DNA from: Acidobacteriota bacterium
Lineage (GTDB): Bacteria; Acidobacteriota; Vicinamibacteria; Vicinamibacterales; UBA8438
NCBI GenBank assembly: GCA_011523845.1
Contig: WTFV01000011.1
Coordinates: 68,871 to 132,870 of the forward strand
Direction: 5' to 3'
Length of the DNA stretch: 64,000 nucleotides
A program made the position numbers and the translations under genes. The notes beneath the pieces were generated by a model. That model searched no databases. It worked only from the letters and a program-made list of their open reading frames with translations, and was not told the DNA's origin. Shown here piece by piece: positions 8,607-29,258 of this stretch. The first letter of the stretch is position 1, and every line of letters starts with the position of its first letter.

Positions 8607-9596
8607 TCAGAAGATCGCGATCGGATTGACCGGCGATCCCGTGCCGCCCGGGACTCGCAGCGGCGCGATCACCAGCATGAACTCCCAGCGATTGAGCCGG
8701 GCGGCGACCTCGGCCGCCGCGTCGAGGTCGATGTTGTCCAGCAGGTTCATCCCGCGGGCGACGATCGCGAACCGATGGATCGGGTTCACGCGCAGCCCCG
8801 GCACGCTGTTCGGCGCTTCGTGCACCGAGTCCGCCCCCAGCAGCGCGATGTCGCGCTCGGCCAGGAACGGAATCACCGACGCGTCCCAGCCCGCCATCTC
8901 GCGGGTCGGTCCCACCGCGTCGCGGTACGCCCAGCGACCGGTGCGCAGCAGCAGCGCGTCGCCCGGCCCCAGCCGGACCCCGGCGTACTCCTCCCACGCC
9001 TCGATATCCTCCCGGTACAGCCTGGTGCCCGGCTCCAGGTAGGGCACGCCCTTCAGCCGGGGCATGTCGACCAGGACGCCGCGCGTCACGAGGCCGTCCT
9101 TCATCTGCGTGGTATCCATCAGCGAGCAGCCGTTCTCGGTGACCACGTCCCGGTAATCGTGGCCGTTGTACAGCTTGTCCTTGTAGAAGACGTGGCACAG
9201 CCCGTCGAGGTGGGAGTAGGTCACCCCGTGGAAGTACACCTCCACCCGGTCGCCGGAGTTCTGTCCCTCGGGATTCACCCGCATCTGCAGCACGTAGGGC
9301 TCGGCGGCATCGACCGCCTCCTCGGTAAGGAAGTCGTGCGACAGCGACACGGTGGTGCCGGTCCGCACCAGCGCGGCGGCCTCCAGGCGCTTGGCCTCCG
9401 TCATCAGGTTGGCGGCACCGATCTGATCGGCGTCGCCCCACCGGCCCCAGTTCGACAGCTCCTCCATCCACCGGTCGAACTGTGCGATGCTGACCGGCTC
9501 GCGCGCACCCGACTGGGCCGACAGGTTCCCCGTCCACGCGGCCAGACCGACCCCCACGATGCTCGCCGCCGCCAGCCGCGTCCACGCGTTGCCCAT
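8607..9596 (-). CDS. Putative cyclase / kynurenine-formamidase-like family protein, exported
   Basis: 329 aa with a signal peptide. The HGVTYSHLDGLCH pattern resembles the HxGTHxDxPxH cyclase-family metal motif. Overall layout is typical of PF04199-like proteins (from memory). Confidence 0.7.
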   Translation of the reverse strand: MGNAWTRLAAASIVGVGLAAWTGNLSAQSGAREPVSIAQFDRWMEELSNWGRWGDADQIGAANLMTEAKRLEAAALVRTGTTVSLSHDFLTEEAVDAAEPYVLQMRVNPEGQNSGDRVEVYFHGVTYSHLDGLCHVFYKDKLYNGHDYRDVVTENGCSLMDTTQMKDGLVTRGVLVDMPRLKGVPYLEPGTRLYREDIEAWEEYAGVRLGPGDALLLRTGRWAYRDAVGPTREMAGWDASVIPFLAERDIALLGADSVHEAPNSVPGLRVNPIHRFAIVARGMNLLDNIDLDAAAEVAARLNRWEFMLVIAPLRVPGGTGSPVNPIAIF

Positions 9597-9666
9597 CGGT
9601 CTCCTCCCTGCTGCCGGCCGGCCGCCCCGCCGGCGACCGTCAACGCGAGTCTACTCCCGCACGCCG

Positions 9667-10323
9667 TCAGGGCGACGGGAACGCGTCTGCGACCCGGCGC
9701 GCATCGATCTGCTCCAGCCCGATCCCATCCGCCCGGCCCTTCCTGTACCAGTCGGCCGCGAACCGGGCCTTCGCGTAGGCGTCCCGTTTCTGCGGTCCGT
9801 TGATGTGTTTGAAGCCGATGAAGGCGCGGGCCCGCTCCCGATTCGCGACGAGATAGGCAGAAACCTCGTTGAGCGTCTGCCGGACCTCGTCGTCGAGCTT
9901 CGGAACGGTGATGCGGGTGCTCTCGGCGGCTGCGATCCTGCTCACCAGGGCCGGTTCCCGCAGCAGACGCAGCGTGGCGAGCCGCCGGTTGCCTTCCAGG
10001 ACGATGAGTCCGTCATCGTCGCCGTCGCTGTCGCGCATCACGACCAGCGGCTCGATGTCTAGGTACCCGTTGGCGGAGATCGACTGCAACAGCTCGTCGA
10101 GCTCGGCCCCGCGGTAGAGGCGCGCAATGATCCACTCGTCGGACGCATCGGCCGCCTCGCCGACGAGCCGCGGGTTTCCCCGGTCCAGCCGCAGCCGCTC
10201 GACCGGCACCTTCGTGGTCGCCTCGAGCTCCATCGTCATCCCGCTGCGCATCCTCTCCTCGGCAGCGAGCTTGTCGCGTATCGCACCCACCCCGGCCACG
10301 ATGGGATCGTCACGCATAGCCAT
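9667..10323 (-). CDS. ParB/Srx N-terminal-domain protein, probably C-terminally truncated
   Basis: Tail of track ORF 9667..11535. Start MAMRDDP at 10323. LDIEPLVV...LIVLEGNRRLATLRLL is the ParB-like GxxRxxA box. It ends only about 70 aa after FIGFKHINGPQKRDAYAKARF, whereas I remember homologues as longer. Confidence 0.55.
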   Translation of the reverse strand: MAMRDDPIVAGVGAIRDKLAAEERMRSGMTMELEATTKVPVERLRLDRGNPRLVGEAADASDEWIIARLYRGAELDELLQSISANGYLDIEPLVVMRDSDGDDDGLIVLEGNRRLATLRLLREPALVSRIAAAESTRITVPKLDDEVRQTLNEVSAYLVANRERARAFIGFKHINGPQKRDAYAKARFAADWYRKGRADGIGLEQIDARRVADAFPSP

Positions 10324-12650: not shown

Positions 12651-12822
12651 TTCACTTGCACACCCGCGACTCGCCGACTTCGGCAATGCTATTCGCAACC
12701 GCCCCAGGATGCCGTCACTTCAACGCCGGCGGACGCGGATGGCAGACGCGCATCGACAGGGCGCTTCGGAATGGATCGCGAAACACGAGGTCGCCGGCGC
12801 GCTCGACCGCGCGGACGATCAG

Positions 12823-12960
12823 CTACGGGCCAGCGTCCGTCCCCTCGCAACGATGCCGCGCGAGCACGTAGAACGCGGTACCGTGCTCGCCGTCATCCGT
12901 GGTTCGCGCGAGCGAGAAGCCGAGGCGCCGGAGCACGGCGCCGGAGGCCGCGTTCGGAAT
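12823..12960 (-). pseudogene. GNAT (RimJ/RimL-type) N-acetyltransferase, 3' fragment displaced by the transposon
   Basis: Hand translation: IPNAASGAVLRRLGFSLARTTDDGEHGTAFYVLARHRCEGTDAGP*. This is the missing C-terminus of the GNAT fragment at 20789-21186 and is in the same phase relative to the 8-bp duplication. Confidence 0.75.
12953..12960. repeat. Target-site duplication, left copy (TTCGGAAT)
   Basis: Identical 8-mer at 20789-20796. Each copy directly abuts a transposon end. Confidence 0.85.
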
Positions 12961-12990
12961 GGGGATTACATACATACATGATCACGCGCC
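12961..12990. repeat. Transposon left inverted repeat
   Basis: GGGGATTACATACATACATGATCACGCGCC. Contains a (CATA)3 microrepeat. Compare with the reverse complement of 20759-20788. Confidence 0.8.
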
Positions 12991-13454
12991 GGGATGCGGG
13001 CGCCGAAACGTCAATGTTTGCAGGAGTTTTCGGCGACTGACCGGCCTCGCGGAATGTTGACAACAAGCGGTCGATGACGGCAGGCACCGGCGCAGGATCA
13101 GAACAGCATCCCGGCCTCCGGATCTCCAGCCGCAGCCGACAAGACCGATCGGATCCCGGATCCGGTACGGCACTGGGTTCCGAGCCGTTCTGGCCTCTCG
13201 ATCGCTTGACCGCGGCGGCCGGTAGCAGCTACCCTGACCATCGTGCATGCGATCTTGCCTTCTGCGATCCTGAGCAGCGCGGCGTCGACCGTGGCAGGCT
13301 CCCGTCTGCCAGATTCTGACTGATCACCCCTGTACAGCCAGATGAACTGGACCGGCTCCATGCCTGGGCCAGGCACCAGTTTGTACGCCGCCTTGCACGG
13401 TCATGCGGCAGGAAGTAAATCTGCGTAAGTCCTGTATTTTCTAGAGTTTACGGC

Positions 13455-14519
13455 TTGTCATATGAAGTGCCTCTCGTTCAGGCTACTTCTATGCCCCAAC
13501 CGGGACCGGGCCGTTCTCACCGTCAAGGGATCACCTTGAAGAAACTGTTCAAACGGTTCCCGGACAACGCCGCAGCCGAGAAGTGGTTCCTCGAGAAACG
13601 CTGGCCGAACGGTATCGCCTGCCCTCGTTGCGGCTCGTTGAACGTCCTAACCAAGACCAAGCACAAGAACATGCCGTACCAGTGCCGAGACTGCCGAAAG
13701 TTCTTCTCGGTGCGGACCGGCATGCCGATGCAGTCCAGCAAGCTCGGGCTCCAGACCTGGCTGATCGCGATGTACCTCCACTCGACCTCGCTGAAGGGCG
13801 TGTCGAGCATGAAGCTGCACCGCGACCTGGGGATCACGCAGAAGAGCGCCTGGTTCCTAGCACATCGGGTCCGGGAGATGTGGCGCCGTGACGAGACGAA
13901 GGACGAAGTATTCGTCGGCCCGATCGAGGCCGACGAGGCGTTCATCGGCGGCAAGGTCAAGTCCATGAGTGCCAGCCGCCGCAAGCAGTTCAAGGGGCGG
14001 GGGCCGTTCGCGAACAAGGCCGCCGTGGCCGGCGTCAAGGATCGTTCGTCCAATCAGGTCAGGATCCGTGTCATCGGAACGGTGACCAGCGAGGCGCTTC
14101 GCGAGTTCGTCGAACGGTACCGAAACGAGCGCACACGCCTCTTCACCGACGAAGCTGCCGCCTACGAAGACCTCAAAAGGCACGATGCCGTAAAGCACAG
14201 CGCCAAGGAGTACGTCCGCGACGAGATCCACACAAATGGAATTGAGTCTTTCTGGTCCATGCTCAAGCGTGGTTACATCGGCACGTACCACCGAATGTCG
14301 TTCGAGCATCTGTTCAGGTACGCGACTGAGTTCGAAGCCCGGCATAACTGCCGCGACTTCGATACCGAGCAGCAGTTGATTCTGATGGTCAGAGGCGCCG
14401 AAGGCCAGGTGCTGCCCTACGCCAAACTCGTCGAGTACGGCGAACGCGCCGTCAAGATCGCCCTGGGCTGGAAGCCGCCGGTCCACTGGCGCCACCGGAA
14501 GACCGCCAAGTCCGATTGA
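13455..14519 (+). CDS. IS1595-family (ISXO2-like) DDE transposase with N-terminal zinc ribbon
   Basis: 354-aa ORF. Zinc ribbon CPRCGS...CRDCRKFFS. DDE-type blocks VFVGPIEADEAFIGG, RLFTDEAAAYEDL, IHTNGIESFWSMLKRG. Start ambiguous (TTG 13455, GTG 13467, ATG 13491). Confidence 0.9.
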   Translation: MSYEVPLVQATSMPQPGPGRSHRQGITLKKLFKRFPDNAAAEKWFLEKRWPNGIACPRCGSLNVLTKTKHKNMPYQCRDCRKFFSVRTGMPMQSSKLGLQTWLIAMYLHSTSLKGVSSMKLHRDLGITQKSAWFLAHRVREMWRRDETKDEVFVGPIEADEAFIGGKVKSMSASRRKQFKGRGPFANKAAVAGVKDRSSNQVRIRVIGTVTSEALREFVERYRNERTRLFTDEAAAYEDLKRHDAVKHSAKEYVRDEIHTNGIESFWSMLKRGYIGTYHRMSFEHLFRYATEFEARHNCRDFDTEQQLILMVRGAEGQVLPYAKLVEYGERAVKIALGWKPPVHWRHRKTAKSD

Positions 14520-14588
14520 CGTTTACACGAGGGGCGGAGCCCAAGGCGGAGCCCCGGCCCCTGGGCACCCGAGCTGTGTTGGTTGTCG

Positions 14589-14768
14589 CTACGCCTCGCA
14601 CTCCTTCGGCCGCGGCGATTGGTGACCGAAGCCGTCGCCGTGCGGCCTGATCGGCTCGCCGCAGCTTCCGCACCGGAACAGCTTGTTGGTATCGCCGCCG
14701 GCCTGCTTGACCAGCTTGGCGATGAGGATCGCAACCTCTCGATCGACGATGACCTGCCGCATCTCCAT
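14589..14768 (-). CDS. Small hypothetical protein with CxxC motif
   Basis: MEMRQVIVDREVAILIAKLVKQAGGDTNKLFRCGSCGEPIRPHGDGFGH... Its ATG overlaps the stop of the upstream gene (ATGA at 14766-14770). Confidence 0.4.
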   Translation of the reverse strand: MEMRQVIVDREVAILIAKLVKQAGGDTNKLFRCGSCGEPIRPHGDGFGHQSPRPKECEA

Positions 14769-15184
14769 CAGCCGATCTCCAGGCTGGTGACCCGGTAGCC
14801 GGCTAGGTCGGATCCCGAGCCGTTCACGACGCACCGGTAGTTGAGCCGCACGGCCGCACCGAAGGCGTTGGTCGTGTCGACGTACGACTCGAGGACGTGC
14901 TCCTGCGTCCCGATGTGCCGAACCTGAGACGCCATCGAGAACAGCGGAAAGTCGCCGCCCGCCGGGTCAGCGAGCCTCTGCCGGACCGCCGCCACGCACG
15001 CCCTGGCGGTGTTGGTCGCCGCGGCGCGGGTTGCGCGCTCGGTCGCGCGCTCCGCGGCAACGGTGGGGCTGACAGTCTCGTCGTTCCCGCCGTCGGGAAG
15101 GATCCAGACCAGCCCCAGGACAAGAAGAGATCCGACGATGACCTTGAACCAGACGGGCGGTTCCGACGACTTGTCGACCTGCAT
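14768..15184 (-). CDS. Membrane-anchored hypothetical protein
   Basis: Start MQVDKSSEPPVWFKVIVGSLLVLGLVWILP (one TM helix) at 15184, followed by a soluble domain of about 100 aa. No family recognised. Confidence 0.5.
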   Translation of the reverse strand: MQVDKSSEPPVWFKVIVGSLLVLGLVWILPDGGNDETVSPTVAAERATERATRAAATNTARACVAAVRQRLADPAGGDFPLFSMASQVRHIGTQEHVLESYVDTTNAFGAAVRLNYRCVVNGSGSDLAGYRVTSLEIG

Positions 15185-15652
15185 GGCTGTCCTCTTTCGG
15201 CCCCGACCTGAAGTGGTCACCGGGCCGGTTGCCAGACAGACCAGTACGCGATGCGGACAGGCTCCCGCGTGTTCCCTGCTGGCGCAGGTCTCGTATTCCG
15301 CGGGCGGCCCGGTGTCGGGCCGCGCCCCGGTCTGTCTGGCAAGAGGCAGCCTACGGGACGGCCGCCGCAGAATCAAGCGGTTGGGTACGGAAAAGTGCTA
15401 TGCTGGCGGTCATGGAGAACGAAGAACCGCACCGTCGGCCCTGCGGTTGACCGCCCGGCCTGAGCCGCAACTCGCAGATGTCGAAGGACGACTCCCGGTA
15501 CCAGCCGACCAGGACCGACATCGAGGAGGACATGCGGGTCGACGCCTCGTTCGAGGAGTTGGTCGACGCCATGTTTGGCCGACGCCGGCCGCGGCACGTG
15601 ATCCACTGACGGCGGAACCGTAGCCTTTGGTTGGTAAGAGGAGGACCGAATA

Positions 15653-15979
15653 ATGGTCGACATAGAAGAACTCAGCGAGAACGAAACTAAGGTGATGGCT
15701 ACGATCTTGGGGTCACGACGAAAGGATGATGGTCTAGGTGAAGCAGAGTTTTGTGCACTCACTGGTTTGTCTAACGTGGATTTCAATCTTGCGATTATAG
15801 ATTTAGAAAAACGCAAGATTCCAATCAAGGACCTTGGTGAGTTTCCTATGGTCTTCCGGTCTCAGGGCAAGATAAAGGCGAACTCGCACGCGTGGGAGTT
15901 TGTCAGTAAGCACAGGGAGCGGTTGGCCTCCGTCTGGTCGGAAATAGAAGCGACCAGAGACACATCCTTTGTGCCTTGA
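15653..15979 (+). CDS. Hypothetical protein, possible winged-helix DNA-binding fold
   Basis: 108 aa in a 35-50 % GC patch. LSENETKVMATILG...GEAEFCALTGLSNVDFNLAIIDLEKRK is MarR/wHTH-like in spacing only. Confidence 0.45.
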   Translation: MVDIEELSENETKVMATILGSRRKDDGLGEAEFCALTGLSNVDFNLAIIDLEKRKIPIKDLGEFPMVFRSQGKIKANSHAWEFVSKHRERLASVWSEIEATRDTSFVP

Positions 15980-16404
15980 CCGTGCTACCTTTCCGGGAAA
16001 AGGTAGTTGGCCACGTCGCCGTATGGAGAACGAAGTTGGATAAACTCATGTGGGGCACGTGTGGGCAAGAACCGCAGTGGTGCAGCTTTCAGCATCTCAA
16101 TTTGCAGAACCTCGAGTACGAGGGCGTCTATATCATCTGGCACGATGGAACAGCTCAAAACAACGTCGCCGAGACTGTCCGCATTGGACAAGGCATCATC
16201 AGCCAGCGGATCGCCACGCATCGAAACGACGACGTGATCACAGCGTACGCCGTTCGAGGGAGCCTTCGGGTTACCTGGGCGGCTGTTGCGGGACGGGCTC
16301 GACGACTCGGAATCGAGAGGTATCTCGCCGACGAACTGGACCCTCTCGTCGGGGAGTACCCTGACGTGCGTCCGATCCCAGTAAACCTTCCCTGGGCTCG
16401 TTGA
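15976..16404 (+). CDS. GIY-YIG-like domain protein
   Basis: 142 aa. YEGVYIIWHDG-x11-VRIGQG-x4-RIATH ... GIERYLADE matches the order GIY...YIG...R...E. The start (TTG 15976 or GTG 15982) overlaps the upstream stop. Confidence 0.45.
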   Translation: MTVLPFREKVVGHVAVWRTKLDKLMWGTCGQEPQWCSFQHLNLQNLEYEGVYIIWHDGTAQNNVAETVRIGQGIISQRIATHRNDDVITAYAVRGSLRVTWAAVAGRARRLGIERYLADELDPLVGEYPDVRPIPVNLPWAR

Positions 16405-16994
16405 GCAGGGCGTTGACAGCCTCGATCAGCTTCATCATCTGGTACTGCTGCCACGGCGGATCGCCGGCACCGCTTCGCTGGCGATCCTTGGCCCACGATC
16501 GCGCTGCGAGCAGTGCCGGCCGAATCTGCTCAACCCCAGCCATCGGGAGGTTCACCACAGTACCCATGCCGAAGTATACACGGGCGGGATCGAGCACCCG
16601 CCACTGCTACGTCCCGGAACCTGCACGCTGCAACCGAATGGAACCAGAAAGGCGTGCAGCACGGCGAGCACCTGCTGCTCGACTTCGGGCCGGGAAACGG
16701 CGGGCAGGTCTGGCTCGCCTGGACGGACGTGGCCGATTTCACCGACGTGCTTGCTCAGTAATCAGACTGAGATGCTACCCGAACAGCGGCCGACTGACGA
16801 CTCGTCTGTGCTTGTGATATGATCAAGTCGGCCGGTGGCCGGGTCGTGATTCATGTTCCGCACGGCCGCTGAGCGGAAAACGACCATGCATGACTCAACA
16901 CCAGCGCAACGGGACAGAGCGACAGTAGAGAACGCTGAATCGCGCTTGGCAGCCCCGGAGTTCGAGGTCGTCAGCCATGACCTGTCCCGACCCG

Positions 16995-17309
16995 TCATTC
17001 TCGATTCGTTGACCGTGTCAAGGCTTGAACGGCTCCTATCTCTTGTCCGAGTTCATGCACCACGTCCCGCAAGACCATCTCCCCTCGCTGGCCGTTTCTA
17101 TGCCGTAGCTTCACCGCCCCGTCGTCTGGATCGATAATCGCCTGCATCACTGTAGACAGCAAGCCGAGTCGACCCTCAAGTCGCCGGATCGCCTCTGTCA
17201 GATTCGCTTCGTCCACATCACCCTCCGTACCCGGCGCCGGACCCGCGCCGTGCGATGAATGGCGGATCGGATCGTAGCGCATTGGGTAAAATGAGTCCAT
17301 GCTGATCAC
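16995..17309 (-). CDS. Hypothetical protein (weak call)
   Basis: 104-aa ORF with plausible composition (EANLTEAIRRLEGRLGLLSTVMQAIIDPDDG) and no convincing SD. The competing plus-strand ORF 16853..17137 overlaps it. Confidence 0.3.
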   Translation of the reverse strand: MISMDSFYPMRYDPIRHSSHGAGPAPGTEGDVDEANLTEAIRRLEGRLGLLSTVMQAIIDPDDGAVKLRHRNGQRGEMVLRDVVHELGQEIGAVQALTRSTNRE

Positions 17310-17564
17310 GCGCGCTGGCTGCCCGCTCCCCGTTGCTGCTGCTGTCCTCCTCTCTCTGCTCGGATGTCAGTTCCAAGCTCACCATAATGCTGTCCTGCTC
17401 CTGTTCATCGGTGAAGAAAGTTGTTGGTCAGGAAATTGAACGTCTTGCCCGTGGACTCATCTGCCTGCGCGCACAGCGACAGAAGCTCTATCACCTGGGC
17501 ATTCGCAGCCCGGTGTCGCGGATTAGACGGCCCCGCTTCATGCCGGGCGTCTTCCGCGTACATT

Positions 17565-17957
17565 CTACTTCTGTTCACCTTGAGGCGTAGCGTCAGAACA
17601 TTCTCGGAGAGCAGCACATAGCTGCTTCGGAGATTCGGCAACCACCAGGATCTGGTGGGGATCTGCGGGTGAGTTGCGACGCAGTTCGATAGTGCCTTTG
17701 GTAGGGCGGACTCCACGAAGAGTCGCCACACGCTGGATCTCGCAGATTCTCAGGAAGGTTGGGCCTTCGAAGAAGGCATCCTCTCCCCGGAGAAACACCC
17801 ATTCATCTGCTGTTCTACCGCTCCAGAGTCGTTGCTCCAAAACTGTCACCAGCACCCACCGGGGGACACTGGAACACTCCTCCTGAGCTTTAGCAGTAGT
17901 GGAAATGACGGCGACGACGGCGACGACCGCGGCGACGACGCGAGGCAATGCGCGCAT
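17565..17957 (-). CDS. Secreted hypothetical protein
   Basis: 130 aa. SD GAGAGGAGA lies upstream of the ATG. Signal peptide MRALPRVVAAVVAVVAVISTTAKAQ. Confidence 0.55.
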   Translation of the reverse strand: MRALPRVVAAVVAVVAVISTTAKAQEECSSVPRWVLVTVLEQRLWSGRTADEWVFLRGEDAFFEGPTFLRICEIQRVATLRGVRPTKGTIELRRNSPADPHQILVVAESPKQLCAALRECSDATPQGEQK

Positions 17958-18180
17958 GGTGGTCTCCTCTCAGAGCGCAGGTTCCCCATCCGTGTCCCGA
18001 CACAGGAACGCCCCAGTTCGCACATGCGAACCGGAGCGGAAAGCCATCACCCAAGCGTGAGATCGAACGCCTTGGGATCGAGGACAAGGCTGACGATCCA
18101 TCGTCAAGTACGTGACGGCAAGTCCGGGCTGTCCACTCGTCGGGGGGAAGGGCCGACCAAGGCCGGCCCTTCGCCGTTGT

Positions 18181-18372
18181 CTATCGACGGCCGCCAGCCT
18201 TGTTGTCGCTGCGATCGACGAGAACGTAGGTGCGGTTCGATTCCGTCGTTGGCGGCAGGGTTTCACCCTGCTCGCTGGTGACTTCGCGACCGCCAACGTC
18301 GCCGCCGCGGGGGCCTCGCTCCTGGTACTGGCCAGAGAAAGGCGCCCTAGAGCCTGGACGTAGTCGCTCCAT
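18181..18372 (-). CDS. YjzC-like small protein
   Basis: 63 aa with a strong SD (GAAGGAGGGGGAC then ATG). PGSRAPFSGQYQERGPRGGDVGGREVTSEQGETLPPT resembles the YjzC-type small-protein pattern as I remember it. Confidence 0.45.
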   Translation of the reverse strand: MERLRPGSRAPFSGQYQERGPRGGDVGGREVTSEQGETLPPTTESNRTYVLVDRSDNKAGGRR

Positions 18373-18516
18373 GTCCCCCTCCTTCGGGGATCAGGCCACA
18401 CACCTTCCGGGGGTTGACTCGGCGACTCGATCCGAGCAAGACTGCGACAGCTATACCTCAGTGGTCACTCGGGCCGCTCGGTCAACGTGGGCCGGGTGGC
18501 CCGTTTGACCCAACGC

Positions 18517-18714
18517 CTACGCGCGTTCCCTTGGATCTTCTGTCGGCGTAGCTTGATTCCTCCTCTCCAGTTGGTCGAGTCTGTCCAGGATCGCCAGCCG
18601 AAGCACGGCCGACGGCGAGAGCCCGATTGCCGGCGGCAGTGCGTTCAGACGTTTTCTTGACCCCTCGGGGAGCCTGACGACCACCGTTTCCGGAAATCGT
18701 GTGTTTTGACTCAC
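18517..18714 (-). CDS. Ribbon-helix-helix (CopG/Arc-type) DNA-binding protein
   Basis: GTG at 18714 has GGAGG 9 nt upstream. TVVVRLPEGSRKRLNALPPAIGLSPSAVLRLAILDRLDQLERR is a beta-strand followed by two helices. The track ORF (18517..18771) probably over-extends the 5' end. Confidence 0.55.
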   Translation of the reverse strand: MSQNTRFPETVVVRLPEGSRKRLNALPPAIGLSPSAVLRLAILDRLDQLERRNQATPTEDPRERA

Positions 18715-18789
18715 TTCCCTGAACCTCCATTGCTGACCTGAAATACTCACATAAGCAGTCTGAATTGTCAACGAAATGGATACAGGTCA

Positions 18790-19179
18790 TCATGCGTTTC
18801 TCGATTTCTGCGACCCTGGCGGCATTCTGAGCTCCTTGGGTGTCGAGCGCGATGAAGGCGACGAGCAGGACTGGCGGGGCGGGGAACGACGAGAGGGCGA
18901 CGAGCGGTCGACGCCTGTCCAGGACGGTTGCAGGTGCTCGATCTGTTCTTCGATCTGGAGGTCGAGACGCTTATCGCGCGCGGCACCGTTCTTCCCGCAT
19001 CCCGATCGAGAAGTTGCCGCTGCCGGAGCCGGCTCCGGAGCACCCGAGCAAGACGGACCGACGAACCGGACACAGTCGACCGGATCATCGACGACGCGCG
19101 CCGGCCCCTCGCCGCAGCCATCGGCGTGCCTGCGGACCGGGTCAAGGTCGTCTTCCGGATCGAGGACCGGTAGGATCAT
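18790..19179 (-). CDS. Hypothetical acidic protein (weak call)
   Basis: Frame chosen by a hand third-position GC count (about 75 %). MILPVLDPEDDLDPV...RDKRLDLQIEEQIEHLQ. Stops 18 nt before the RHH gene region. Confidence 0.3.
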   Translation of the reverse strand: MILPVLDPEDDLDPVRRHADGCGEGPARVVDDPVDCVRFVGPSCSGAPEPAPAAATSRSGCGKNGAARDKRLDLQIEEQIEHLQPSWTGVDRSSPSRRSPPRQSCSSPSSRSTPKELRMPPGSQKSRNA

Positions 19180-19298
19180 CGATCCGGTCGCCAGGACGGT
19201 GCCCTGCGGCTGGCGTTGTGGAGCGGGGAATCGAGTCGGACATCGACAACACGTCTGATACATGATCAGTTCATGGTCAACATGATAGCATCTGCCAC

Positions 19299-20420
19299 AT
19301 GATTCAGTCGCTTGAGGGGATGGACCTGGCCGATCGGCTGCGCGAGATGTCGAGTCGGATCAGGCAGCGGGTCGACAGCGTGAAGACCGAGGAGGCCACC
19401 AAGACCGCCCTCGTGATGCCGTTCATCAACCATGTGCTCGGGTACAACGTCTTCGACCCGGACGAGGTCGTGCCCGAGTTCATCGCCGACGTGGGCACGA
19501 AGAAGGGCGAGAAGGTCGACTACGCGATCTTCCGGGACGGCCAGCCGATCATGCTGTTCGAGTGCAAGCACTACGGCGTCGACCTCGGCAAGGAGCCCGC
19601 AGCGCAGTTGTACCGGTACTTCAGCGTCGCCGAGGCCCGGTTCGGCGTCCTGACCGACGGCGTCGTCTACCGCTTCTACTCGGACATCGACGAACAGAAC
19701 AAGATGGACGCGCGGCCGTTCCTCGAGATCAACATGCTCGACGTGGACGCGATCGACGTGGACGAGTTGAAGCGCTTCACGAAGACCTCGTTCGACCTCG
19801 ACCAGATCCTGAGCACCGCCAAGGACCTGAAGTACACGCGCGAAGTCCTCCGGCTGTTGACGAACGAGTGGAACGATCCGTCCGAGGCGTTCGTCCGGCA
19901 CTTCGCTGCCCAGGTCTACGACGGCGTCAAGACGAAGGCGGTGATCGAGCAGTTCACGCGGGCGACGAAGAAAGCGCTGCACCAGTTCGTTGCACGCCGC
20001 ATCAGCGACCGCCTGAAGTCGGCGCTCGAGAGCACCCGAGACGAGGCGCCGAGCGCGGCGGACGACCCGGCCGACACGGGTGCCGAGACGGCCGGCGCGC
20101 CGGAAATCGTCACGACCGAAGACGAGTACCAGGCGTTCTATGCGGTCACCGCGATCCTGAGCCCGGAGATCCAGCCCGACCGGATCGTGCTCCGTAACGG
20201 GAAGAGCCAGTGCGCGGTCCTGCTCGACAACACGAACAGGCAGCCGATCTGTCGGCTGTACTTCAAGTCGCGCCAGAAGAAGCTCGGGATCCTGGGGATC
20301 CTGGGTGAACAGAAGACCGAGGAGCGAGTAACGATCGAGTCGATCGGCGACATCTTCGGTCACGCCGACCGGATCCGGGAAACCGTGCGTCGCTACGACG
20401 CCGAACGCAACAACGGATAG
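19299..20420 (+). CDS. Stand-alone HsdR_N-like PD-(D/E)xK nuclease-fold protein with C-terminal extension
   Basis: 373 aa. EEATKTALVMPFINHVLGYNVFDPDEVVPEF...KVDYAIFRDGQPIMLFECK (D-x13-ExK) is the pattern of type I restriction HsdR N-terminal / Mrr-cat-like domains. No helicase or methylase partner is nearby. Confidence 0.65.
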   Translation: MIQSLEGMDLADRLREMSSRIRQRVDSVKTEEATKTALVMPFINHVLGYNVFDPDEVVPEFIADVGTKKGEKVDYAIFRDGQPIMLFECKHYGVDLGKEPAAQLYRYFSVAEARFGVLTDGVVYRFYSDIDEQNKMDARPFLEINMLDVDAIDVDELKRFTKTSFDLDQILSTAKDLKYTREVLRLLTNEWNDPSEAFVRHFAAQVYDGVKTKAVIEQFTRATKKALHQFVARRISDRLKSALESTRDEAPSAADDPADTGAETAGAPEIVTTEDEYQAFYAVTAILSPEIQPDRIVLRNGKSQCAVLLDNTNRQPICRLYFKSRQKKLGILGILGEQKTEERVTIESIGDIFGHADRIRETVRRYDAERNNG

Positions 20421-20758
20421 TGCCTCACAGTCGGAGAGCCGGTCGCCAGATGGCTGCATGTGCCTGATCGTCAACCGGCGTCGCCCTAAGCGCCTGTTGC
20501 CTGGCGGCGATCGCATACACGCGACCGCATGAGCATGCAGATATGCACGTGCGAGGGCGCATCCGATCCACGCCGTAGACCCCCGGATCGCGCTGTGGCG
20601 AATCCTCGTCCGTCCTGAGCGATTTCGGCCCGGAGCCGGAATCCGGACTGCATATGCAGAAGTCGCCCGGCACCCGTTTTCTTTTGACGCCAAGCGCTTG
20701 AATACGTCATTGGACGTGCTCCGAAAAGTCCAATAAATACGGGCGTTTTCGGTCCGGC

Positions 20759-20788
20759 GCGGCGTGATCACCCACCGATATAATCCCC
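20759..20788. repeat. Transposon right inverted repeat
   Basis: The reverse complement reads GGGGATTATATCGGTGGGTGATCACGCCGC. It shares GGGGATTA.AT and TGATCACGC with the left end. Further CCGAAA and TTTTCGG blocks are shared within about 75 bp. Confidence 0.8.
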
Positions 20789-20796
20789 TTCGGAAT
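20789..20796. repeat. Target-site duplication, right copy (TTCGGAAT)
   Basis: Identical to 12953-12960. Confidence 0.85.
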
Positions 20797-21186
20797 ATCC
20801 GTCGCCGCCCGGATCTCGGCGCACCCGAGCGTCTCGAACGCGAACCCGCACGCCGTGGCCGCGGCCTCGGTGGCGAAGCCCCGGCCCCAGTATGTCGGCA
20901 GCAGTCCGTACAGCAGTTGCAGCTCGGGCGGGTCGAAGAACTCGCGGAAGCCGACGAACCCGATCACCAACGGGTCGTCACGCCGCCTGACGGCCCACAG
21001 GCCGACGGAGCCGGTTCGGAACCGCCGCTCGCTGGCCAGAATCTCCGCCTCGACCCACTCCGCGGATACCGCTTGGCCGTCGAGCAGATAGCGCCGCACA
21101 TCGGCGTCGCAAAAGAAGTGACGCAGCGACGCGGCGTCGGACATCGCGACCGGCGTCAGATCGAGACGTGCCGTGCGCCGTGTCAT
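20789..21186 (-). pseudogene. GNAT (RimJ/RimL-type) N-acetyltransferase, 5' fragment interrupted by the transposon
   Basis: MTRRTARLDLTPVAMSDAASLRHFF...LWAVRRRDDPLVIGFVGF...LLPTYWGRGFATEAAATACGFAFETLGCAEIRAATDIP. Track ORF 20707..21186 then reads into transposon-end sequence. Confidence 0.8.
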
Positions 21187-21191
21187 ACGCG

Positions 21192-21386
21192 AGCCGTCGT
21201 CGCCATGGCCGGTCGAAGTCTAGCGCACGCGGCAGGAATCGCCGGCGACGGCGTGACGATTCACGCTGTTGGACAGTTATGCTTGACGTAACGTGGATAC
21301 GTGCCGCTACGGCGGGCACGGTCCGATGGCAGCGGGAACCGAAGCGTCGTGATCGTCGACTACCACCGGTGAGGAGCACAGGCCCA
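21192..21386. repeat. Copy 1 of duplicated res-5'-end / higB-tail junction segment
   Basis: 21192-21240 is near-identical to 35428-35476, including res codons 1-5 on the minus strand. GGGAACCGAAGCGTCGTGATC...CTACCACC...ACAGGCCCA recurs at 35501-35566 and partly at 36520-36557. Confidence 0.8.
21292..21372 (+). pseudogene. higB (RelE/ParE-family) 3' remnant
   Basis: A short frame opens after a TAA and ends ...SGNRSVVIVDYHR*, 13 nt before higA. VEIVDYH is the usual HigB C-terminus as I remember it. No N-terminal part is present. Confidence 0.45.
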
Positions 21387-21724
21387 TGCGTGAGCCCATC
21401 CACCCAGGCGAGACGCTGCGCGAGGATCTCGACGCCCTCGGCATGAGCGCGTCGGAGCTTGCGCGGCGCATCGAGGTACCGGTGCACCGCATCACTCAGA
21501 TTCTCAACGGCCGGCGCGCGGTCACCGGCGACACGGCGCTGCGCCTCGGGCGCTTCTTCGGAACCTCGGGCGAGTTCTGGCTCAACCTCCAGAAGCTCTA
21601 CGAGCTGCGGCTTGCGGAGCGCGAGAACGGCGCGGCGATCGCCCGGCTGCCCACCCTGGACGACGCCAGGGACCTGCACGCGGCTGCCCCGCCCGGCGCT
21701 TCCTCGGCTCCGGGATCGGCGTGA
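21386..21724 (+). CDS. higA: HigA-family antitoxin (XRE-type HTH)
   Basis: MREPIHPGETLREDLDALGMSASELARRIEVPVHRITQILNGRRAVTGDTALRLGRFFGTSGEFWLNLQ is the classic HigA/VapI pattern. Confidence 0.85.
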   Translation: MREPIHPGETLREDLDALGMSASELARRIEVPVHRITQILNGRRAVTGDTALRLGRFFGTSGEFWLNLQKLYELRLAERENGAAIARLPTLDDARDLHAAAPPGASSAPGSA

Positions 21725-21764
21725 TGAACGCGGCCCTTCCGGGCCTCGGAGACCGACGCATGGC

Positions 21765-22010
21765 CTACGCTCGTGCCGCCGGCCCGACCCGGAAGTCACG
21801 TGCGTGCGTGATGTCCGCATCGGTCACTGCACGTACCTGTGACGACGACACGGTAACCAACGCCGCCGTGTAACCATCCAGGGTCAGAAACTCCACCTCG
21901 AGAGCTTCACCGTCCCGATGGACGTGAACAATCGTTCCAACATCTCCGGCCTTCAGGCCCGGCTCGGCAAGGTCGTCCGTGAGCACGATGCGATCATGTT
22001 CTTCCAGCAT
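21765..22010 (-). CDS. DUF4926-like small protein (paralogue 1)
   Basis: MLEEHDRIVLTDDLAEPGLKAGDVGTIVHVHRDGEALEVEFLTLDG. About 85 % DNA identity to 23022-23249. Confidence 0.65.
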   Translation of the reverse strand: MLEEHDRIVLTDDLAEPGLKAGDVGTIVHVHRDGEALEVEFLTLDGYTAALVTVSSSQVRAVTDADITHARDFRVGPAARA

Positions 22011-22121
22011 TCCGACTCCCCAGCCGTCGGACTCCGCCAGCGCTACAAGGACTCTACGAGCGCCGGTTCAATGCGTCGATCCGGCCTGCTTGCGGTTGGT
22101 CATCTCTATGCGCCGTCCTCG

Positions 22122-22412
22122 TCAGACATCTATCGCCTCGCGCTCGACGTAGGGGCGTATCTCCGCCCGCAACTCCCGGGTCGTCGTCATGTCCACGTGT
22201 CGGCCCAGCAGGTCCTCCAGATAAGCCTGCGCTCCGAAATAGCGCCTCCAGTCGTGCGGCGCGTCGAACCGGACCAGGATGTCCACGTCGCTGTCGTCAG
22301 AGCCTCGATCGCGGGCAAAGGACCCGTAGAGGGCCAACTCGATCACCCCGAAGCGCCGGGCGAGCGTCGCCTTGTGCCGTCGAAGCAGACGGAGCACGTC
22401 GTTCCTCGTCAT
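22122..22412 (-). CDS. MNT-type nucleotidyltransferase (HEPN/MNT antitoxin-like), no HEPN partner
   Basis: 96 aa. LYGSFARDRGSDDSDVDILV is the GS-x10-DxD minimal nucleotidyltransferase motif. Downstream there is only an 11-codon ORF. Confidence 0.8.
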   Translation of the reverse strand: MTRNDVLRLLRRHKATLARRFGVIELALYGSFARDRGSDDSDVDILVRFDAPHDWRRYFGAQAYLEDLLGRHVDMTTTRELRAEIRPYVEREAIDV

Positions 22413-22520
22413 GGCGTCCTCGGTCGGATCGAGCCCGACGGTCGGGCGTGTCCGGAGATCGATGTCGCGGCCGAGTCACGAGAGGGATCGAAATCGGGCT
22501 CGTGTCCATCTGTGCGCGCC

Positions 22521-22736
22521 TCATGACTCATTCGCACCGCGTCCCTCGCCCGGTGCACTCTCCGTCGCGGCATTCATTGCGGCGATGCTGCTCTGCGGAG
22601 GCTGCACGCAGGTGCGGCCCGATGCGGCTTCCATGCTCCGGATGTGCCGGACAATGGCGTCGATGTCATAGTTGAAACGCGCTGCGAGCCTGTCGCGCAC
22701 GGCGCGCACCTCGGCCACAATCGGATCAGGTTTCAT
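22521..22736 (-). CDS. Small antitoxin-like protein
   Basis: MKPDPIVAEVRAVRDRLAARFNYDIDAIVRHIRSME. Its start overlaps the end of the upstream PIN-like ORF. Confidence 0.45.
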   Translation of the reverse strand: MKPDPIVAEVRAVRDRLAARFNYDIDAIVRHIRSMEAASGRTCVQPPQSSIAAMNAATESAPGEGRGANES

Positions 22737-23031
22737 CGTCGTCCTCCGCTACGACAAGCTGCTCCGGCGTGCACAGGAGCGGCGGGTCGATACCGGCGTC
22801 TCGACACACGGCCTCGATCCGTGGCCGCGCCGCGGCGGCATCGCGATCTCCCACCGCCGCTTCTTCCCGAACCAGTTCCGAAATCACCAACTCGAACCGC
22901 TCCTTCGTACCCGCCCACCAGTCTCGCGTGCTCTGCTGCCGCCCAGCAATCACTATGTCACGCGCGGGCCGGGCCGTCAGATAGCTGACGACGCTGGTTT
23001 CGACGTAGACACGCGGCTTCATCATGACCAA
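22726..23031 (-). CDS. PIN-like toxin homologue, apparently lacking the central catalytic portion
   Basis: The N-terminus VYVETSVVSYLTARP...FELVISELVREEA and C-terminus IEAVCRDAGIDPPLLCTPEQL resemble the two ends of 150-170-aa PIN-type toxins I recall. This protein is only 101 aa. Confidence 0.4.
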   Translation of the reverse strand: MVMMKPRVYVETSVVSYLTARPARDIVIAGRQQSTRDWWAGTKERFELVISELVREEAAVGDRDAAAARPRIEAVCRDAGIDPPLLCTPEQLVVAEDDDET

Positions 23032-23249
23032 CCGTCACGTGCGTGCGTGATGTCCGCAGCGGTCACTGGACGCACCTGGGACGACGACACCGTGACCAGC
23101 GCCGCCGTGTGGCCATCCAGGGACAGGAACTCCACCTCGAAGGCTTCACCGTCCCGATGGACGTGAACAATCGTTCCGACATCTCCGGCCTTCGGGCCCG
23201 GATCGGCAGCGTCGTCCGTGAGCACCACGCGATCATGTTCTTCCAGCAT
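23022..23249 (-). CDS. DUF4926-like small protein (paralogue 2)
   Basis: MLEEHDRVVLTDDAADPGPKAGDVGTIVHVHRDGEAFEVEFLSLDG. Direct repeat of 21765-22010. Confidence 0.65.
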   Translation of the reverse strand: MLEEHDRVVLTDDAADPGPKAGDVGTIVHVHRDGEAFEVEFLSLDGHTAALVTVSSSQVRPVTAADITHARDGWS

Positions 23250-23440
23250 CCCGCCTCCTCAGCGGATGCGCGCGATGAGGCGCGGCTCCCCCGTACTCGT
23301 CAATGAGCCAGACGGTTCGCCCCGACGGTTGCGTGCGTCCGGAATCTCCAGGACGCCTCCACACTGTACCGCGTCGGTGTCCATCTCGGCCTTCAGCGTC
23401 TTGAGCGCGCTGCAGGGATCGCGACCATCTTGCGCGTCGC
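23250..23440 (-). pseudogene. Possible DUF6883-like remnant, frameshifted
   Basis: Two minus-strand frames read ...GRTVWLIDEYGG and ...GEPRLIARIR*, directly upstream of the DUF4926 gene. The pairing of these families and the C-terminal pattern are recalled from memory only. Confidence 0.25.
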
Positions 23441-23442
23441 GC

Positions 23443-23581
23443 GTCGAAGGGATTGACCACGGGGACGCCGAGACCTTCGATGTCCGGGCGTGTTGCGGGG
23501 GACGACGGTCATGTCGTGCACACGGGCGGTCGCGGCCAGGCGTTCCGTTGCGGTCCTGGAAACACCGGTCAGCTTGTTCAA
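23443..23581 (-). pseudogene. vapC (PIN) C-terminal remnant, frameshifted
   Basis: ...ERLAATARVHDMTVV in one frame continues as RPDIEGLGVPVVNPFDA in another. This resembles a VapC C-terminus (IAATA..H.ltlvTrN..Df....v.v.NPF). Confidence 0.4.
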
Positions 23582-23606
23582 CCGCGGCTTGGATGCGTGT
23601 GCACGG

Positions 23607-25719
23607 TCACTGCCCCGCCCGCAGGTCGTCGAGGAACTCCGAGCCGGGGTCCACGCCCGTCACCAGCAGCCGGTCGCGGGCGCGGGTGCAGGCGACGTAG
23701 AGCAAGTGCCGCTCGGTGCCGTAGACCTCCTCCAGATCGGCGTCATCGCCCACGCGTTCGATCCGGGTCTGCAGAGGAATGACCTCGTCGTCGCACGCTG
23801 CCACCGCGACCGCCCGGAACTCCAGCCCCTTGGCGAGGTGCATGGTGCCGACCGCGACCGACCCGGACACGCCGCCGGACCCGTCGTCGAGCTGCACGGC
23901 GCGCATGCCCGCGGCCCGTACAGCCGAAAGCGCCCGGTCGATCTGCTCCAGTGACCTGACGAACACGCCGATTGCCTGCGGCGCGCAGCCCTCGCGCTGT
24001 CGCGCGCGAAGCCAGTCCGCGATGGCCTTGGTCTCGTCCTCCGGCGAATCGAAGGTCCTGACCTCGGGTGCGGGTCCGTTGAACACCGAGACCGTTGCAC
24101 CTCGCTGCTCCGGGTTGCCGTCGACGTCGGCCAGCTCGGGCGGCAAGAGCCGGTCCGCCTGTCGCCGGATCTGATGCGACGTGCGGTAGTTGATGCGCAG
24201 CGTATGGGATCGCCCCCGCACGTCGACGCCGAGGGCCCGCCAGGAGAATGGTGTCTGGAAGATCCGCTGTCCAAGATCCCCGGCGAAGAACAGGCCGTTC
24301 GGCCGGCTCCCGCCCAGGCCCGCCAGAAACCGCAGTTCCGCGACGCCGATGTCCTGGGCTTCGTCGAGGACGCAGAAATCGAACGGTGGATGCGCAGCCC
24401 CCGCCATCGTCGCCGCCACCCGTCCGAACATGCCGGGCTCCGTCAACCTCCCCCGCTCGGCGAGCGCCGATTGGACCCGCGAGAAGATCGACCACAGCAA
24501 CTCCCGCTGCTTCTCGGCCAACCGGGTCTTGCGGCCGAGCCGCTGCACGTCGCGGTCGTCCTCCCAGCTCGCAAGTTGCCAGGCGTCGACCACCGTGCTC
24601 CATTCCGTCCGAAGGAAGTGCGCACCGAAACGATGACCTTCGACATCGGCAGCCGCCTGCCGGAGCAGCTCCCGGATGTCTTCGTCCGTCGCCAGCTTGA
24701 GGCGGCCGACGTTCGCCGTGTAGAGGCGACGCCCAATGGCGCTCATCGAAATGCACCTCGAGACGCTCGGCGATCTGCGGCTCGTTCCCGATGAGGCGTC
24801 TGAGACGCGTTCGCAGCGCGGTGGCCAGCGCATCGGAGAAGGTGGCCAGCAGCACGCGGCTCTCTGGATGTGCGCGCGCCAGATGCACCGCCCTGTGAAG
24901 CGCCACGATGGTCTTGCCGGTGCCGGCCGAGCCCGAGACACGCGCCGGACCGGTGTACTCGCGTTCGACGAGCTGCCGTTGGGCCGGGTGCAGGAAGACC
25001 GTCCACTTCTCCCAGGGGTAGTCCAGCGCCCGCTCCAGCGCCTCCACGTCCGCCATCACCCGGAAGCGGCGCTGCGCGTCCGGATGCGCGAACGGATCGG
25101 CGCCCGCCACGGCAGGCGCCGGGCGGTCAGGGGCACCGCCGGTCGCAAGCTGCAGCAGTGCCTCGGCGGCCTCGCCCGGCAGGTGGTCGGCGAGGTCGAG
25201 CAGCGTGTCCTCCGTCGCGGCCCGCACGTCGTTCAGCCACTCGACGGGCACGCCGTAGCCCAGCAGATCGTCGTCCGACGCGTGGGCGAAGAACGCCGTC
25301 CGCGACGCCGCCGGTCTGCCAGCCGCGGCCCCTTCGGTGGACGCGGGGACGTCCACCTCCACATACCGCGGCACCCGAATCTCGCGAACCGTCTCGCGGA
25401 TCTCGACGAGTTGCGCAGCGCCCGTCGTCGGATGCCGTTCCAGTCGCCGTCGTTCGGCCCACTGGTACGCCGCGTCGTGATGATCGACGTAGCAGAGCAG
25501 GAAGCTGGAAGCGGTCCGGTGGACGATCAGCCGGATGTCGCGACTGACCCGAACGGACCAGAAGTCCTTGTCCTTCGCCCGGTCGACCTGGTGCAGCTTC
25601 AGGCCCGGATGCGCCGGGTTCATCTGCAGGTCGAACGCCGCGGTCTTGACCGCCTTCTGCTCGTCGCCGGTCAGCTTCGCGAGGCTATCGGTGAAGGTGT
25701 CGGCGATTCGGAACTGCAT
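23607..25719 (-). pseudogene. UvrD/Rep-family helicase with N-terminal RelE/ParE-like domain, split by a +1 frameshift near 24749-24751
   Basis: The upstream frame starts at 25719 (MQFRIADTF...KLHQVDRAKDKDFWSVRVSRDIRLIVHR...VDHHDAAYQWA) and carries Walker A GSAGTGKT. The downstream frame (track ORF 23607..24941) carries VLDEAQD, INYRTS, TMHLAKGLEF and YVACTRARD. 2113 nt = 3n+1. Confidence 0.75.
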
Positions 25720-28223: not shown

Positions 28224-28237
28224 GCTGCGCCTTGCCG

Positions 28238-29227
28238 CTACACTCCTCTCGCAGCCAGCTTATCGGCGATGGTCTGGCGCTCCTTCAGCATCGTCCGGAT
28301 ATCCGCTTCGCGAACCAGAGACCGATCGTGAATCAACGCATCCTTCAGCACCTCGTCGGCGGCGCGAACGACCTCCGCGTAGCTCAGGCCCGCCGCGAGG
28401 TTGGCGAGGCTGCGCCAGCGGATCCGCTTCACGGCCTGTGAGGCGAGCCGTGCCCTCAGAACCTGCACAATCTGCGTCCTGTCGGGCAACTCGTAGTGCA
28501 GGATGTCGTCGAAGCGACGGAAGAGCGCGGGATCGAGAATGCCTGGATGGTTGGTCGCGGCAATGACGAGGCTGTGGGAGCGATCCTGCTCGATCATCTG
28601 GAGAAAACTGTTGAGGACACGTCGGATCTCGCCGACGTCGTTCGCGAGCCCACGCTGCGAGCCAATCGCGTCGAACTCGTCGAAGAAGTACACCCCCCGC
28701 GTGCGTCCCGTCGCCTCGAAGATCTGCCGCAGCTTGGCCGCCGTCTCTCCCATGTACTTGGTGATCAACCCATCGAGGCGGACCTGAAGAAGCGGAAGCC
28801 CCAGCTCTCCAGCCAGTACCGACGCGGTCAGCGTCTTGCCGGTTCCGGGTGGCCCCGTCAACAACAACTTGCGCCGCGGCGCGAGACCTCGCTCCAGGAT
28901 GCGCCCGGCGTGGCGCTGCTCCCGAATCACGCGCCGAATCTGGTCCCGGAGCTCCTCTCCCAGCACCATCTGTCCCAGTCGTGCGCCCGGATAGGACGCT
29001 TCCAGCAGATTCGCCAGCTCGCCGCGCGGCCGCCCGATCGGAACCGGCGCTCCGGCCCCCGTTTGGCTCTTGGCGCGATCGATCAGCGTGCGCAGCTCCT
29101 CGGCTAGTCTGCCATGCCCGAGCCTCGCCTCGTGGGCGGCCACCTGCATGGCGACGGAGAAGAAGCGGTCGTCATCGCCCTCCGCGTGCGACTTCAGCAG
29201 CGCCTTGAGCTGTTCACCGCTGGCCAT
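28238..29227 (-). CDS. ietA: AAA+ ATPase (IetA-like)
   Basis: Walker A GPPGTGKT, Walker B VYFFDEFD, sensor VIAATN, PALFRRFD. The ATG at 29227 has GGGAGA 7 nt upstream, so the track start at 29242 is less likely. 14-nt gap to the peptidase gene. Confidence 0.8.
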   Translation of the reverse strand: MASGEQLKALLKSHAEGDDDRFFSVAMQVAAHEARLGHGRLAEELRTLIDRAKSQTGAGAPVPIGRPRGELANLLEASYPGARLGQMVLGEELRDQIRRVIREQRHAGRILERGLAPRRKLLLTGPPGTGKTLTASVLAGELGLPLLQVRLDGLITKYMGETAAKLRQIFEATGRTRGVYFFDEFDAIGSQRGLANDVGEIRRVLNSFLQMIEQDRSHSLVIAATNHPGILDPALFRRFDDILHYELPDRTQIVQVLRARLASQAVKRIRWRSLANLAAGLSYAEVVRAADEVLKDALIHDRSLVREADIRTMLKERQTIADKLAARGV

Positions 29228-29258
29228 CAAGCATTCTCCCACGTGGGTTCGCGGCGAT

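Follow-up and report, generated by a model that had tools for sequence, protein, structure and literature searches.

A 7.8-kb passenger-carrying IS1595-family element in an acetyltransferase gene of a Vicinamibacterales bacterium

We analyzed a stretch of 64,000 nucleotides from an Acidobacteriota (Vicinamibacterales) genome (contig WTFV01000011.1, assembly GCA_011523845.1; hereafter the window), in which a 7.8-kb segment at 12961–20788 interrupts a gene for a RimJ/RimL-type GNAT acetyltransferase. We consider it highly likely that this segment is a transporter IS (tIS) with a single transposase, belonging to the IS1595 family of insertion sequences (ISs) and moving as a unit. By the definition in 10.1101/2021.05.26.445724, a tIS is an IS-like structure that also encloses passenger genes unrelated to transposition; such elements were first described for the IS1595 family (Siguier, Gagnevin and Chandler 2009, as cited in PMC3129680). 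The window element has one transposase, terminal inverted repeats (IRs) and a target duplication, and encloses between the IRs an unrelated endonuclease gene, a gene for a YjzC-like protein and other open reading frames (ORFs). Together, its ends, duplication and transposase and an architecture that recurs in relatives argue for a real IS1595-family tIS, a category known since 2009. A first-pass annotation of the window had called the element far more than a plain IS, which is true, but it is not a new kind of element, since tISs were known and close relatives reach 11.6 kb.

The boundaries of the element and the interrupted gene are as follows (handles beginning with L denote other loci, most of them related elements introduced below).

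12823–12952, minus strand: interrupted GNAT gene, C-terminal remainder; together with the duplication, 45 codons plus stop
12953–12960, no strand: 8-bp target-site duplication, left copy (TTCGGAAT, which the empty site has once)
12961–12987, plus strand: left terminal inverted repeat (IRL) GGGGATTACATACATACATGATCACGC; same IRL type in L015, L016, L017, L027 and L108
About 12988–13425: unique left region, non-coding-looking, holding the hairpin-like motif of the next line
13003–13033, plus strand: subterminal hairpin-like motif of the left end, CCGAAACG...(G)TTTTCGG, oriented like its right-end counterpart
20514–20761, plus strand: conserved right subterminal block, including a hairpin-like motif at 20721–20752; 77–81% identical to relatives
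20762–20788, minus strand: right terminal inverted repeat (IRR), which reads GGGGATTATATCGGTGGGTGATCACGC on this strand
20789–20796, no strand: right copy of the target-site duplication TTCGGAAT
20797–21186, minus strand: interrupted GNAT gene (Acetyltransf_3), N-terminal 130 codons

As is characteristic of the IS1595 family, short terminal IRs stand next to the duplication. The left tip begins GGGGATTAC... at 12961 and the reverse complement of 20762–20788 reads GGGGATTATATCGGTGGGTGATCACGC; the two 27-nt arms are imperfect, matching at 20 of 27 positions, which bears out the inverted repeats first proposed for these ends. The pattern GGGGATTAYAT-N7-TGATCACGC occurred exactly twice in the window, at the two ends and in inverted orientation, with 0 occurrences expected (100 shuffles). 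The shared subterminal blocks (CCGAAA, TTTTCGG) noted earlier are also real, with the correction that together they make up a hairpin-like motif, CCGAAA(A)CG...loop...CGTTTTCGG, which lies near both ends in direct rather than inverted orientation. The copy at the right end is conserved among relatives, and the left motif (W 46–74) matches the E15 right end, plus/plus, at 90%. Both copies of TTCGGAAT directly adjoin the element tips (12960/12961 and 20788/20789). Because this 8-mer is present four times in the window, the signal of a duplication lies in its position against both tips and not in its rarity.

We then examined the interrupted gene and the corresponding empty site. Deletion of 12961–20796 in silico fused the minus-strand frames into a single 175-aa ORF that matched the Pfam profile Acetyltransf_3 essentially end to end and across the junction (residues 7–145 on profile positions 1–137 of 138, E = 1.1e-26); JGI names its homologues RimJ/RimL. 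A search with the restored protein returned intact GNAT homologues, labelled as Acidobacteria (86–91% identity), that were continuous over ...AATDIP|NAASG..., so that the two halves align contiguously to one intact protein. Moreover, DNA of a sister organism from other samples (homologue P0121; loci L111–L114) is 92–94% identical at the nucleotide level to the window flanks, and in four of its contigs the window segments 20789–21194 and 12831–12961 map side by side with a 9-nt overlap. This overlap, with ATTCCGAA present just once where the element is missing, marks an 8-bp target duplication. The duplication, the restored frame and the contiguity of the GNAT halves thus hold as the first-pass annotation had proposed them, and insertion of the element at codons 131–133 is predicted to have inactivated the GNAT gene.

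The transposase gene lies at 13491–14519 on the plus strand and encodes a DDE transposase of the IS1595 family that has a zinc ribbon at its N-terminus (342 aa if translated from the ATG, or 354 aa from a TTG at 13455; GC content at third codon positions (GC3) 0.81). It matched three profiles over their whole length, NF033547 (161.4 bits against a cut-off of 75; positions 1–215 of 215), PF12762 (113.5 bits, cut-off 27) and the zinc-ribbon profile PF12760 (38.5 bits, cut-off 25.4), confirming that the sole transposase of the element is IS1595/ISXO2-like; it is apparently intact. The candidate catalytic residues D148, D220 and E252 are invariant in 21 homologues. In a plasmid collection, transposase relatives reached at most 43% identity and were annotated just as 'IS1595 family transposase', with no subgroup names. 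The tips GGGGATTAC and GGGGATTAT fit the GGnnATTAT end consensus that we take to be that of ISNwi1, a subgroup assignment that stays provisional.

The same ends were found beside IS1595-type transposases elsewhere. Seven related complete elements of 4.5–11.6 kb encode transposases 72–86% identical to that of the window, have the same IRL and IRR types and are each bounded by their own perfect 8-bp duplication.

L015: 6114 bp, duplication GATGTAGT
L014: the L015 element with an IS630-like insertion nested in it
L016: 4526 bp, duplication TCCTGAAT
L017: 5666 bp, duplication TTCTGCTC; found in the same sample as the window element
L024: 11572 bp, duplication AGCGAGAA; Vicinamibacterales metagenome-assembled genome (MAG)
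L027: 7233 bp, duplication CGGGCGGA; Vicinamibacterales MAG; a nested 1280-bp IS disrupts the start of the transposase
L108: 7324 bp, duplication TTTAGAAT

Two further elements, L109 and L110, are cut by contig ends, at lengths above 6.9 kb and above 11 kb, respectively. About 35 more distant relatives (36–56% identity) were delimited by a script that called for matching tips flanked on either side by one identical 8-mer, and all had GGGrATTATATA-type ends and 8-bp duplications; only two are at most 1.3 kb long, most measure 1.9–4.7 kb and some extend up to 10 kb. The order of blocks is constant in all: transposase, a short block that we call block B, a structured element, a small ORF and the right end. 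Elements differ most in the cargo that stretches from the small ORF to the right end. The block around the 59-aa gene of block B, 14589–14836, is 91% identical at the nucleotide level (93% at the amino acid level) to 11795–12042 of L017, compared with 81% nucleotide identity between the two transposases, suggesting a recent exchange of modules between co-resident elements.

Two side observations concern these relatives. L027 holds two 100% identical copies of the 1280-bp IS, at 8724–10003 and 17126–18405, and the copy at the very start of its IS1595 transposase gene probably inactivates that gene. Four of eight target octamers (window, L015, L016, L017, L024, L027, L108 and L109) end in GAAT (TTCGGAAT, TCCTGAAT, TTTAGAAT and GATTGAAT), and the targets of many distant relatives are rich in AT or partly palindromic, e.g. 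TTCGCGAA and TTTGCAAA, pointing to a possible target preference.

By analogy with the IS1595 family, the zinc-ribbon DDE transposase would recognize both 27-nt terminal repeats (common core GGGGATTAYAT-N7-TGATCA) and mobilize the whole segment between them as one unit; the ends would be joined to an 8-bp staggered cut in the target, the repair of which would yield the TTCGGAAT duplication. We infer that the entire cargo was present when this copy inserted. Several points weigh against movement of the whole as a unit. The exact element was found as one copy at one insertion site, so that movement of the full 7.8 kb is deduced from a single event. The IRs are just 74% complementary, with IRL and IRR consistently unlike at positions 12–18. 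Cargo varies among the relatives, nested ISs occur in L014, L027 and L108, and some of the cargo could have arrived after insertion. Finally, activity of the element is a prediction from its sequence.

The most serious competitor to a tIS that inserted as a whole is a history in which the GNAT gene was first hit by a shorter IS1595 element, which then gained some or most of its cargo in situ, through nested insertions or recombination with co-resident sister elements, so that the 7.8-kb unit never moved as such. It draws on the nested ISs of the relatives (IS630-like in L014, the 1280-bp IS in L027, IS4-like in L108), on the module exchange suggested by block B with the same-sample element L017, and on the variability of the stretch from the small ORF to the right end. 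However, 14520–20513 showed neither a further transposase or integrase nor any internal IR or sign of a duplication, and all complete close relatives hold 3–10 kb of cargo inside their own duplications; we consider in-situ growth unlikely.

Far less probable still is that each end stems from an element of its own, as it would in a composite or recombinant structure. Although IRL and IRR differ at 7 of 27 positions, the same IRL/IRR pairing is repeated in L015, L016, L017, L027 and L108, the 8-bp duplications at the two ends are identical and there is just one transposase. We attach as little weight to the idea that the junctions are an assembly chimera. Contigs of several assemblies do break repeatedly at 14657–14680, 16058–16077 and 18410, but the break at 14657–14680 falls in block B, which is 91% identical to the L017 element of the same sample, and both junctions are spanned at 99.7–100% identity in at least five samples and four assembly sources (ENA k141 contigs, ENA scaffold-named contigs, JGI and Logan). 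In all, 13 public contigs carry an identical transposase or endonuclease, and all represent the same insertion, in at least five samples. Since both junctions are crossed repeatedly in assemblies made with different assemblers, an assembly artefact, raised by the first-pass annotation as a concern, is excluded.

Downstream of the transposase, two features are conserved within the subclade.

15192–15365 (core 15262–15322), no strand assigned: conserved structured element, multi-stem fold
15396–15404, plus strand: extended -10-like sequence TGCTATGCT
15478–15609, plus strand: conserved small ORF; 43 aa here, 49–69 aa in relatives, in which an upstream ATG (equivalent to 15412) is in frame
Structured element at other loci: L017 12075–12247; L024 14355–14528; L027 13850–14021; L108 7166–7337; L109 2936–3115; L049 12175–12374; L025 13888–14075; L026 12223–12405; L056 11512–11694; L032 12030–12117

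The structured element, of about 170 nt, is present in about 11 elements of this IS1595 subclade, and neither its position downstream of the transposase nor its orientation varies. Window positions 15192–15365 align with six close relatives and show compensatory changes in a long outer stem, for example from GCCAGACAGACC/GGTCTGTCTGGC in the window to GCCAGTCGTGACG/CGTCAACGACTGGC in L108. A covariance model built from these seven sequences also detected the motif in L025, L026, L049 and L056, the transposases of which are 45–52% identical, and a shorter core model (R2) added L032; neither model detected it in the most distant relatives (36–44% identity). When the hits were aligned, 92% of cells were paired, compared with 30–38% when partners were slid, double changes were found in 27 of 42 pairs, and all ten outer-helix pairs covaried. 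All of these figures are somewhat inflated by the covariance-model-guided alignment, which biases pair counts towards the model. Realignment with MAFFT lost the variable outer stem, and the model-guided alignment was retained. Rfam covariance models gave no match at E ≤ 1 in window positions 12800–20900 or in L026, L049 and L056, blastn of the motif against plasmids returned chance-level matches only, and a literature search found no paper linking IS1595 to a structured RNA.

On the acting strand, two lines of evidence point in opposite directions: the counts of G-U versus A-C (24:14) favor the transposase strand, whereas consensus and single-sequence folding energies favor the strand opposite to the transposase. 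The motif may also be a structure at the DNA rather than the RNA level. A scan for consensus promoters and terminators gave nothing above the shuffled expectation.

An ORF of 43–65 aa begins 23–45 nt downstream of the motif in four of five elements checked; L026 has an intervening ORF. In the window, the longer N-terminal frame from the ATG at 15412 is interrupted by a TGA. Homologues of the small ORF are present in L015, L017, L024, L025, L026, L027, L108 and L109, and the W-type ORFs share with those of L025 and L026 the core YxPTKAELEE..R(I/V)DA(T/S)(P/F)E(E/Q)L; the ORFs at the equivalent position in L049 and L056 differ in sequence. A profile search extended this family to 233 proteins, all unannotated and with no Pfam domain, many of them on contigs with transposase homologues. 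In several elements the opposite flank of the motif adjoins the start of a minus-strand gene, of variable sequence, whose product is a secreted or membrane protein. Further small-ORF copies, at L115–L123, lie in 5–16 kb of examined contig in which no IS1595 transposase gene is called. The motif is present in L116–L118, and the copy inspected (L117) retains its 3' half only; given this reduction and the absence of IS1595-type ends around the copies at L115–L123, they look like remnants.

We tentatively propose, at somewhat less than even likelihood, that the structured element and the small ORF form a dedicated accessory module of one IS1595 subclade rather than arbitrary passengers. Such a module could act as a leader or regulatory RNA for a flanking gene, as a device for maintaining the element through stabilization in the host, or as a single-stranded-DNA structure controlling transposition.

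The passenger DNA amounts to about 6 kb, of which 15610–20513 (about 4.9 kb) is element-specific. Its low GC content had been put at 35–55% for several lines against about 70% for the genome; by our measurement the element averages 61.8% (lowest 300-nt windows 49%) between flanks of 71.2% (left) and 66.8% (right). Likewise, for the at least ten cargo ORFs counted initially, public gene calls give 13 downstream of the transposase, of which only about eight are supported by homology, GC3 or conservation. The cargo features are listed here.

14589–14768, minus strand: 59-aa CxxC small protein ('block B'), 93% identical at the amino acid level to the L017 copy, above the conservation of the transposase
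14768–15184, minus strand: 138-aa protein, anchored in the membrane by its N-terminus; phrog_13160 (unknown function)
15653–15979, plus strand: 108-aa passenger ORF, about 50% GC
16048–16404, plus strand: 118-aa passenger ORF, GIY-YIG-like N-terminus by eye only, no Pfam match
17565–17957, minus strand: 130-aa protein with a signal-peptide-like N-terminus
18181–18372, minus strand: 63-aa YjzC-like protein (PF14168, 30.9 bits)
18517–18714, minus strand: 65-aa ribbon-helix-helix (RHH)/RelB-like protein, weak match
19299–20420, plus strand: 373-aa endonuclease with an HSDR_N (PD-(D/E)xK) domain (phrog_4225 over its full length, E = 7e-115; GC3 0.92)

Homologues of the endonuclease, 38–46% identical and annotated 'endonuclease', occur in temperate phages of several phyla; a sequence search of the PDB with this protein gave no match. 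A closer homologue, 82% identical, lies at L027 15496–16605, about 210 bp beyond the right end of the L027 element (which ends at 15274). The window gene is thus inside its element and the L027 gene outside, with homology limited to the gene, a placement that may be coincidence or may hint at the capture of a flanking gene. The 118-aa protein has a 49% identical homologue at L040 1598–1945 (minus strand), next to another IS1595 transposase on a metagenome contig of 2.4 kb, and may be a recurrent passenger. None of ten cargo proteins matched the PADLOC defence models, save for one match of 13.9 bits at chance level, and a tRNA scan of the window found none. A 13-nt repeat, ATGGAGAACGAAG, at 15412 and 16023 was dropped, being no more than chance would give in 8 kb.

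To the right of the GNAT gene, window positions of about 21300–30400 look like a variable island, only parts of which are common to the sister organism (genes as called on L007/L008). It encodes an HTH_3 regulator, an NTP_transf_2 protein, a UvrD_C protein, a Peptidase_S8 and AAA pair and an N6_N4 methyltransferase, as well as two DUF4926 paralogues contained in 230-bp repeats (21795–22024 and 23034–23263) that are about 90% identical to each other.

Like other IS1595 tISs, the window element combines a single DDE transposase carrying PF12762 and PF12760 with short terminal IRs, an 8-bp duplication and passengers between the IRs. It differs in that its IRL and IRR are consistently unlike each other, and in that part of its cargo (the structured element, the small ORF and the 59-aa protein) is conserved in the subclade and not arbitrary. 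ISfinder lists the passenger-carrying groups as ISNwi1+, ISPna2+ and ISNha5; at 7.8 kb, and up to 11.6 kb in its relatives, the present element presumably stands at or beyond the upper sizes of such groups. With unit transposons of the Tn3 family it shares one transposase, terminal IRs and passengers moved as a unit, but the transposase is of another family, there is no resolvase or res site here and the duplication is 8 bp instead of the 5 bp of Tn3. A covarying structured element inherited with a transposase gene is also found in IS200/IS605 and IS607 (omega RNA) and in IS110/IS1111 (bridge/seek RNA). Unlike in those systems, the transposase here is a classical IR-recognizing DDE enzyme and the motif sits mid-element, not at an end; there is no sign of a guide function, and the motif is a candidate RNA only. 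The small-ORF copies at L115–L123, some with a truncated motif and with no IS1595 transposase gene called in 5–16 kb, recall mobile insertion cassettes (MICs) and MITEs, from which they differ in being without IS1595-type ends, having the look of remnants and not of cassettes.

The element provides a well-delimited example of a tIS from Acidobacteriota (Vicinamibacterales), in which the ends, the duplication and the empty site are all defined. The structured motif and the tiny ORF beside it offer a concrete, testable lead, being co-inherited with transposases 45–86% identical and having no Rfam or Pfam match; should they indeed form an accessory module, the IS1595 family would for the first time have a structured nucleic-acid component linked to it. 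In the IS1595 clade studied here, nearly all members carry passenger DNA, up to a total length of 11.6 kb, which bears on how small IS-like elements transfer genes such as phage-type nucleases among genomes.

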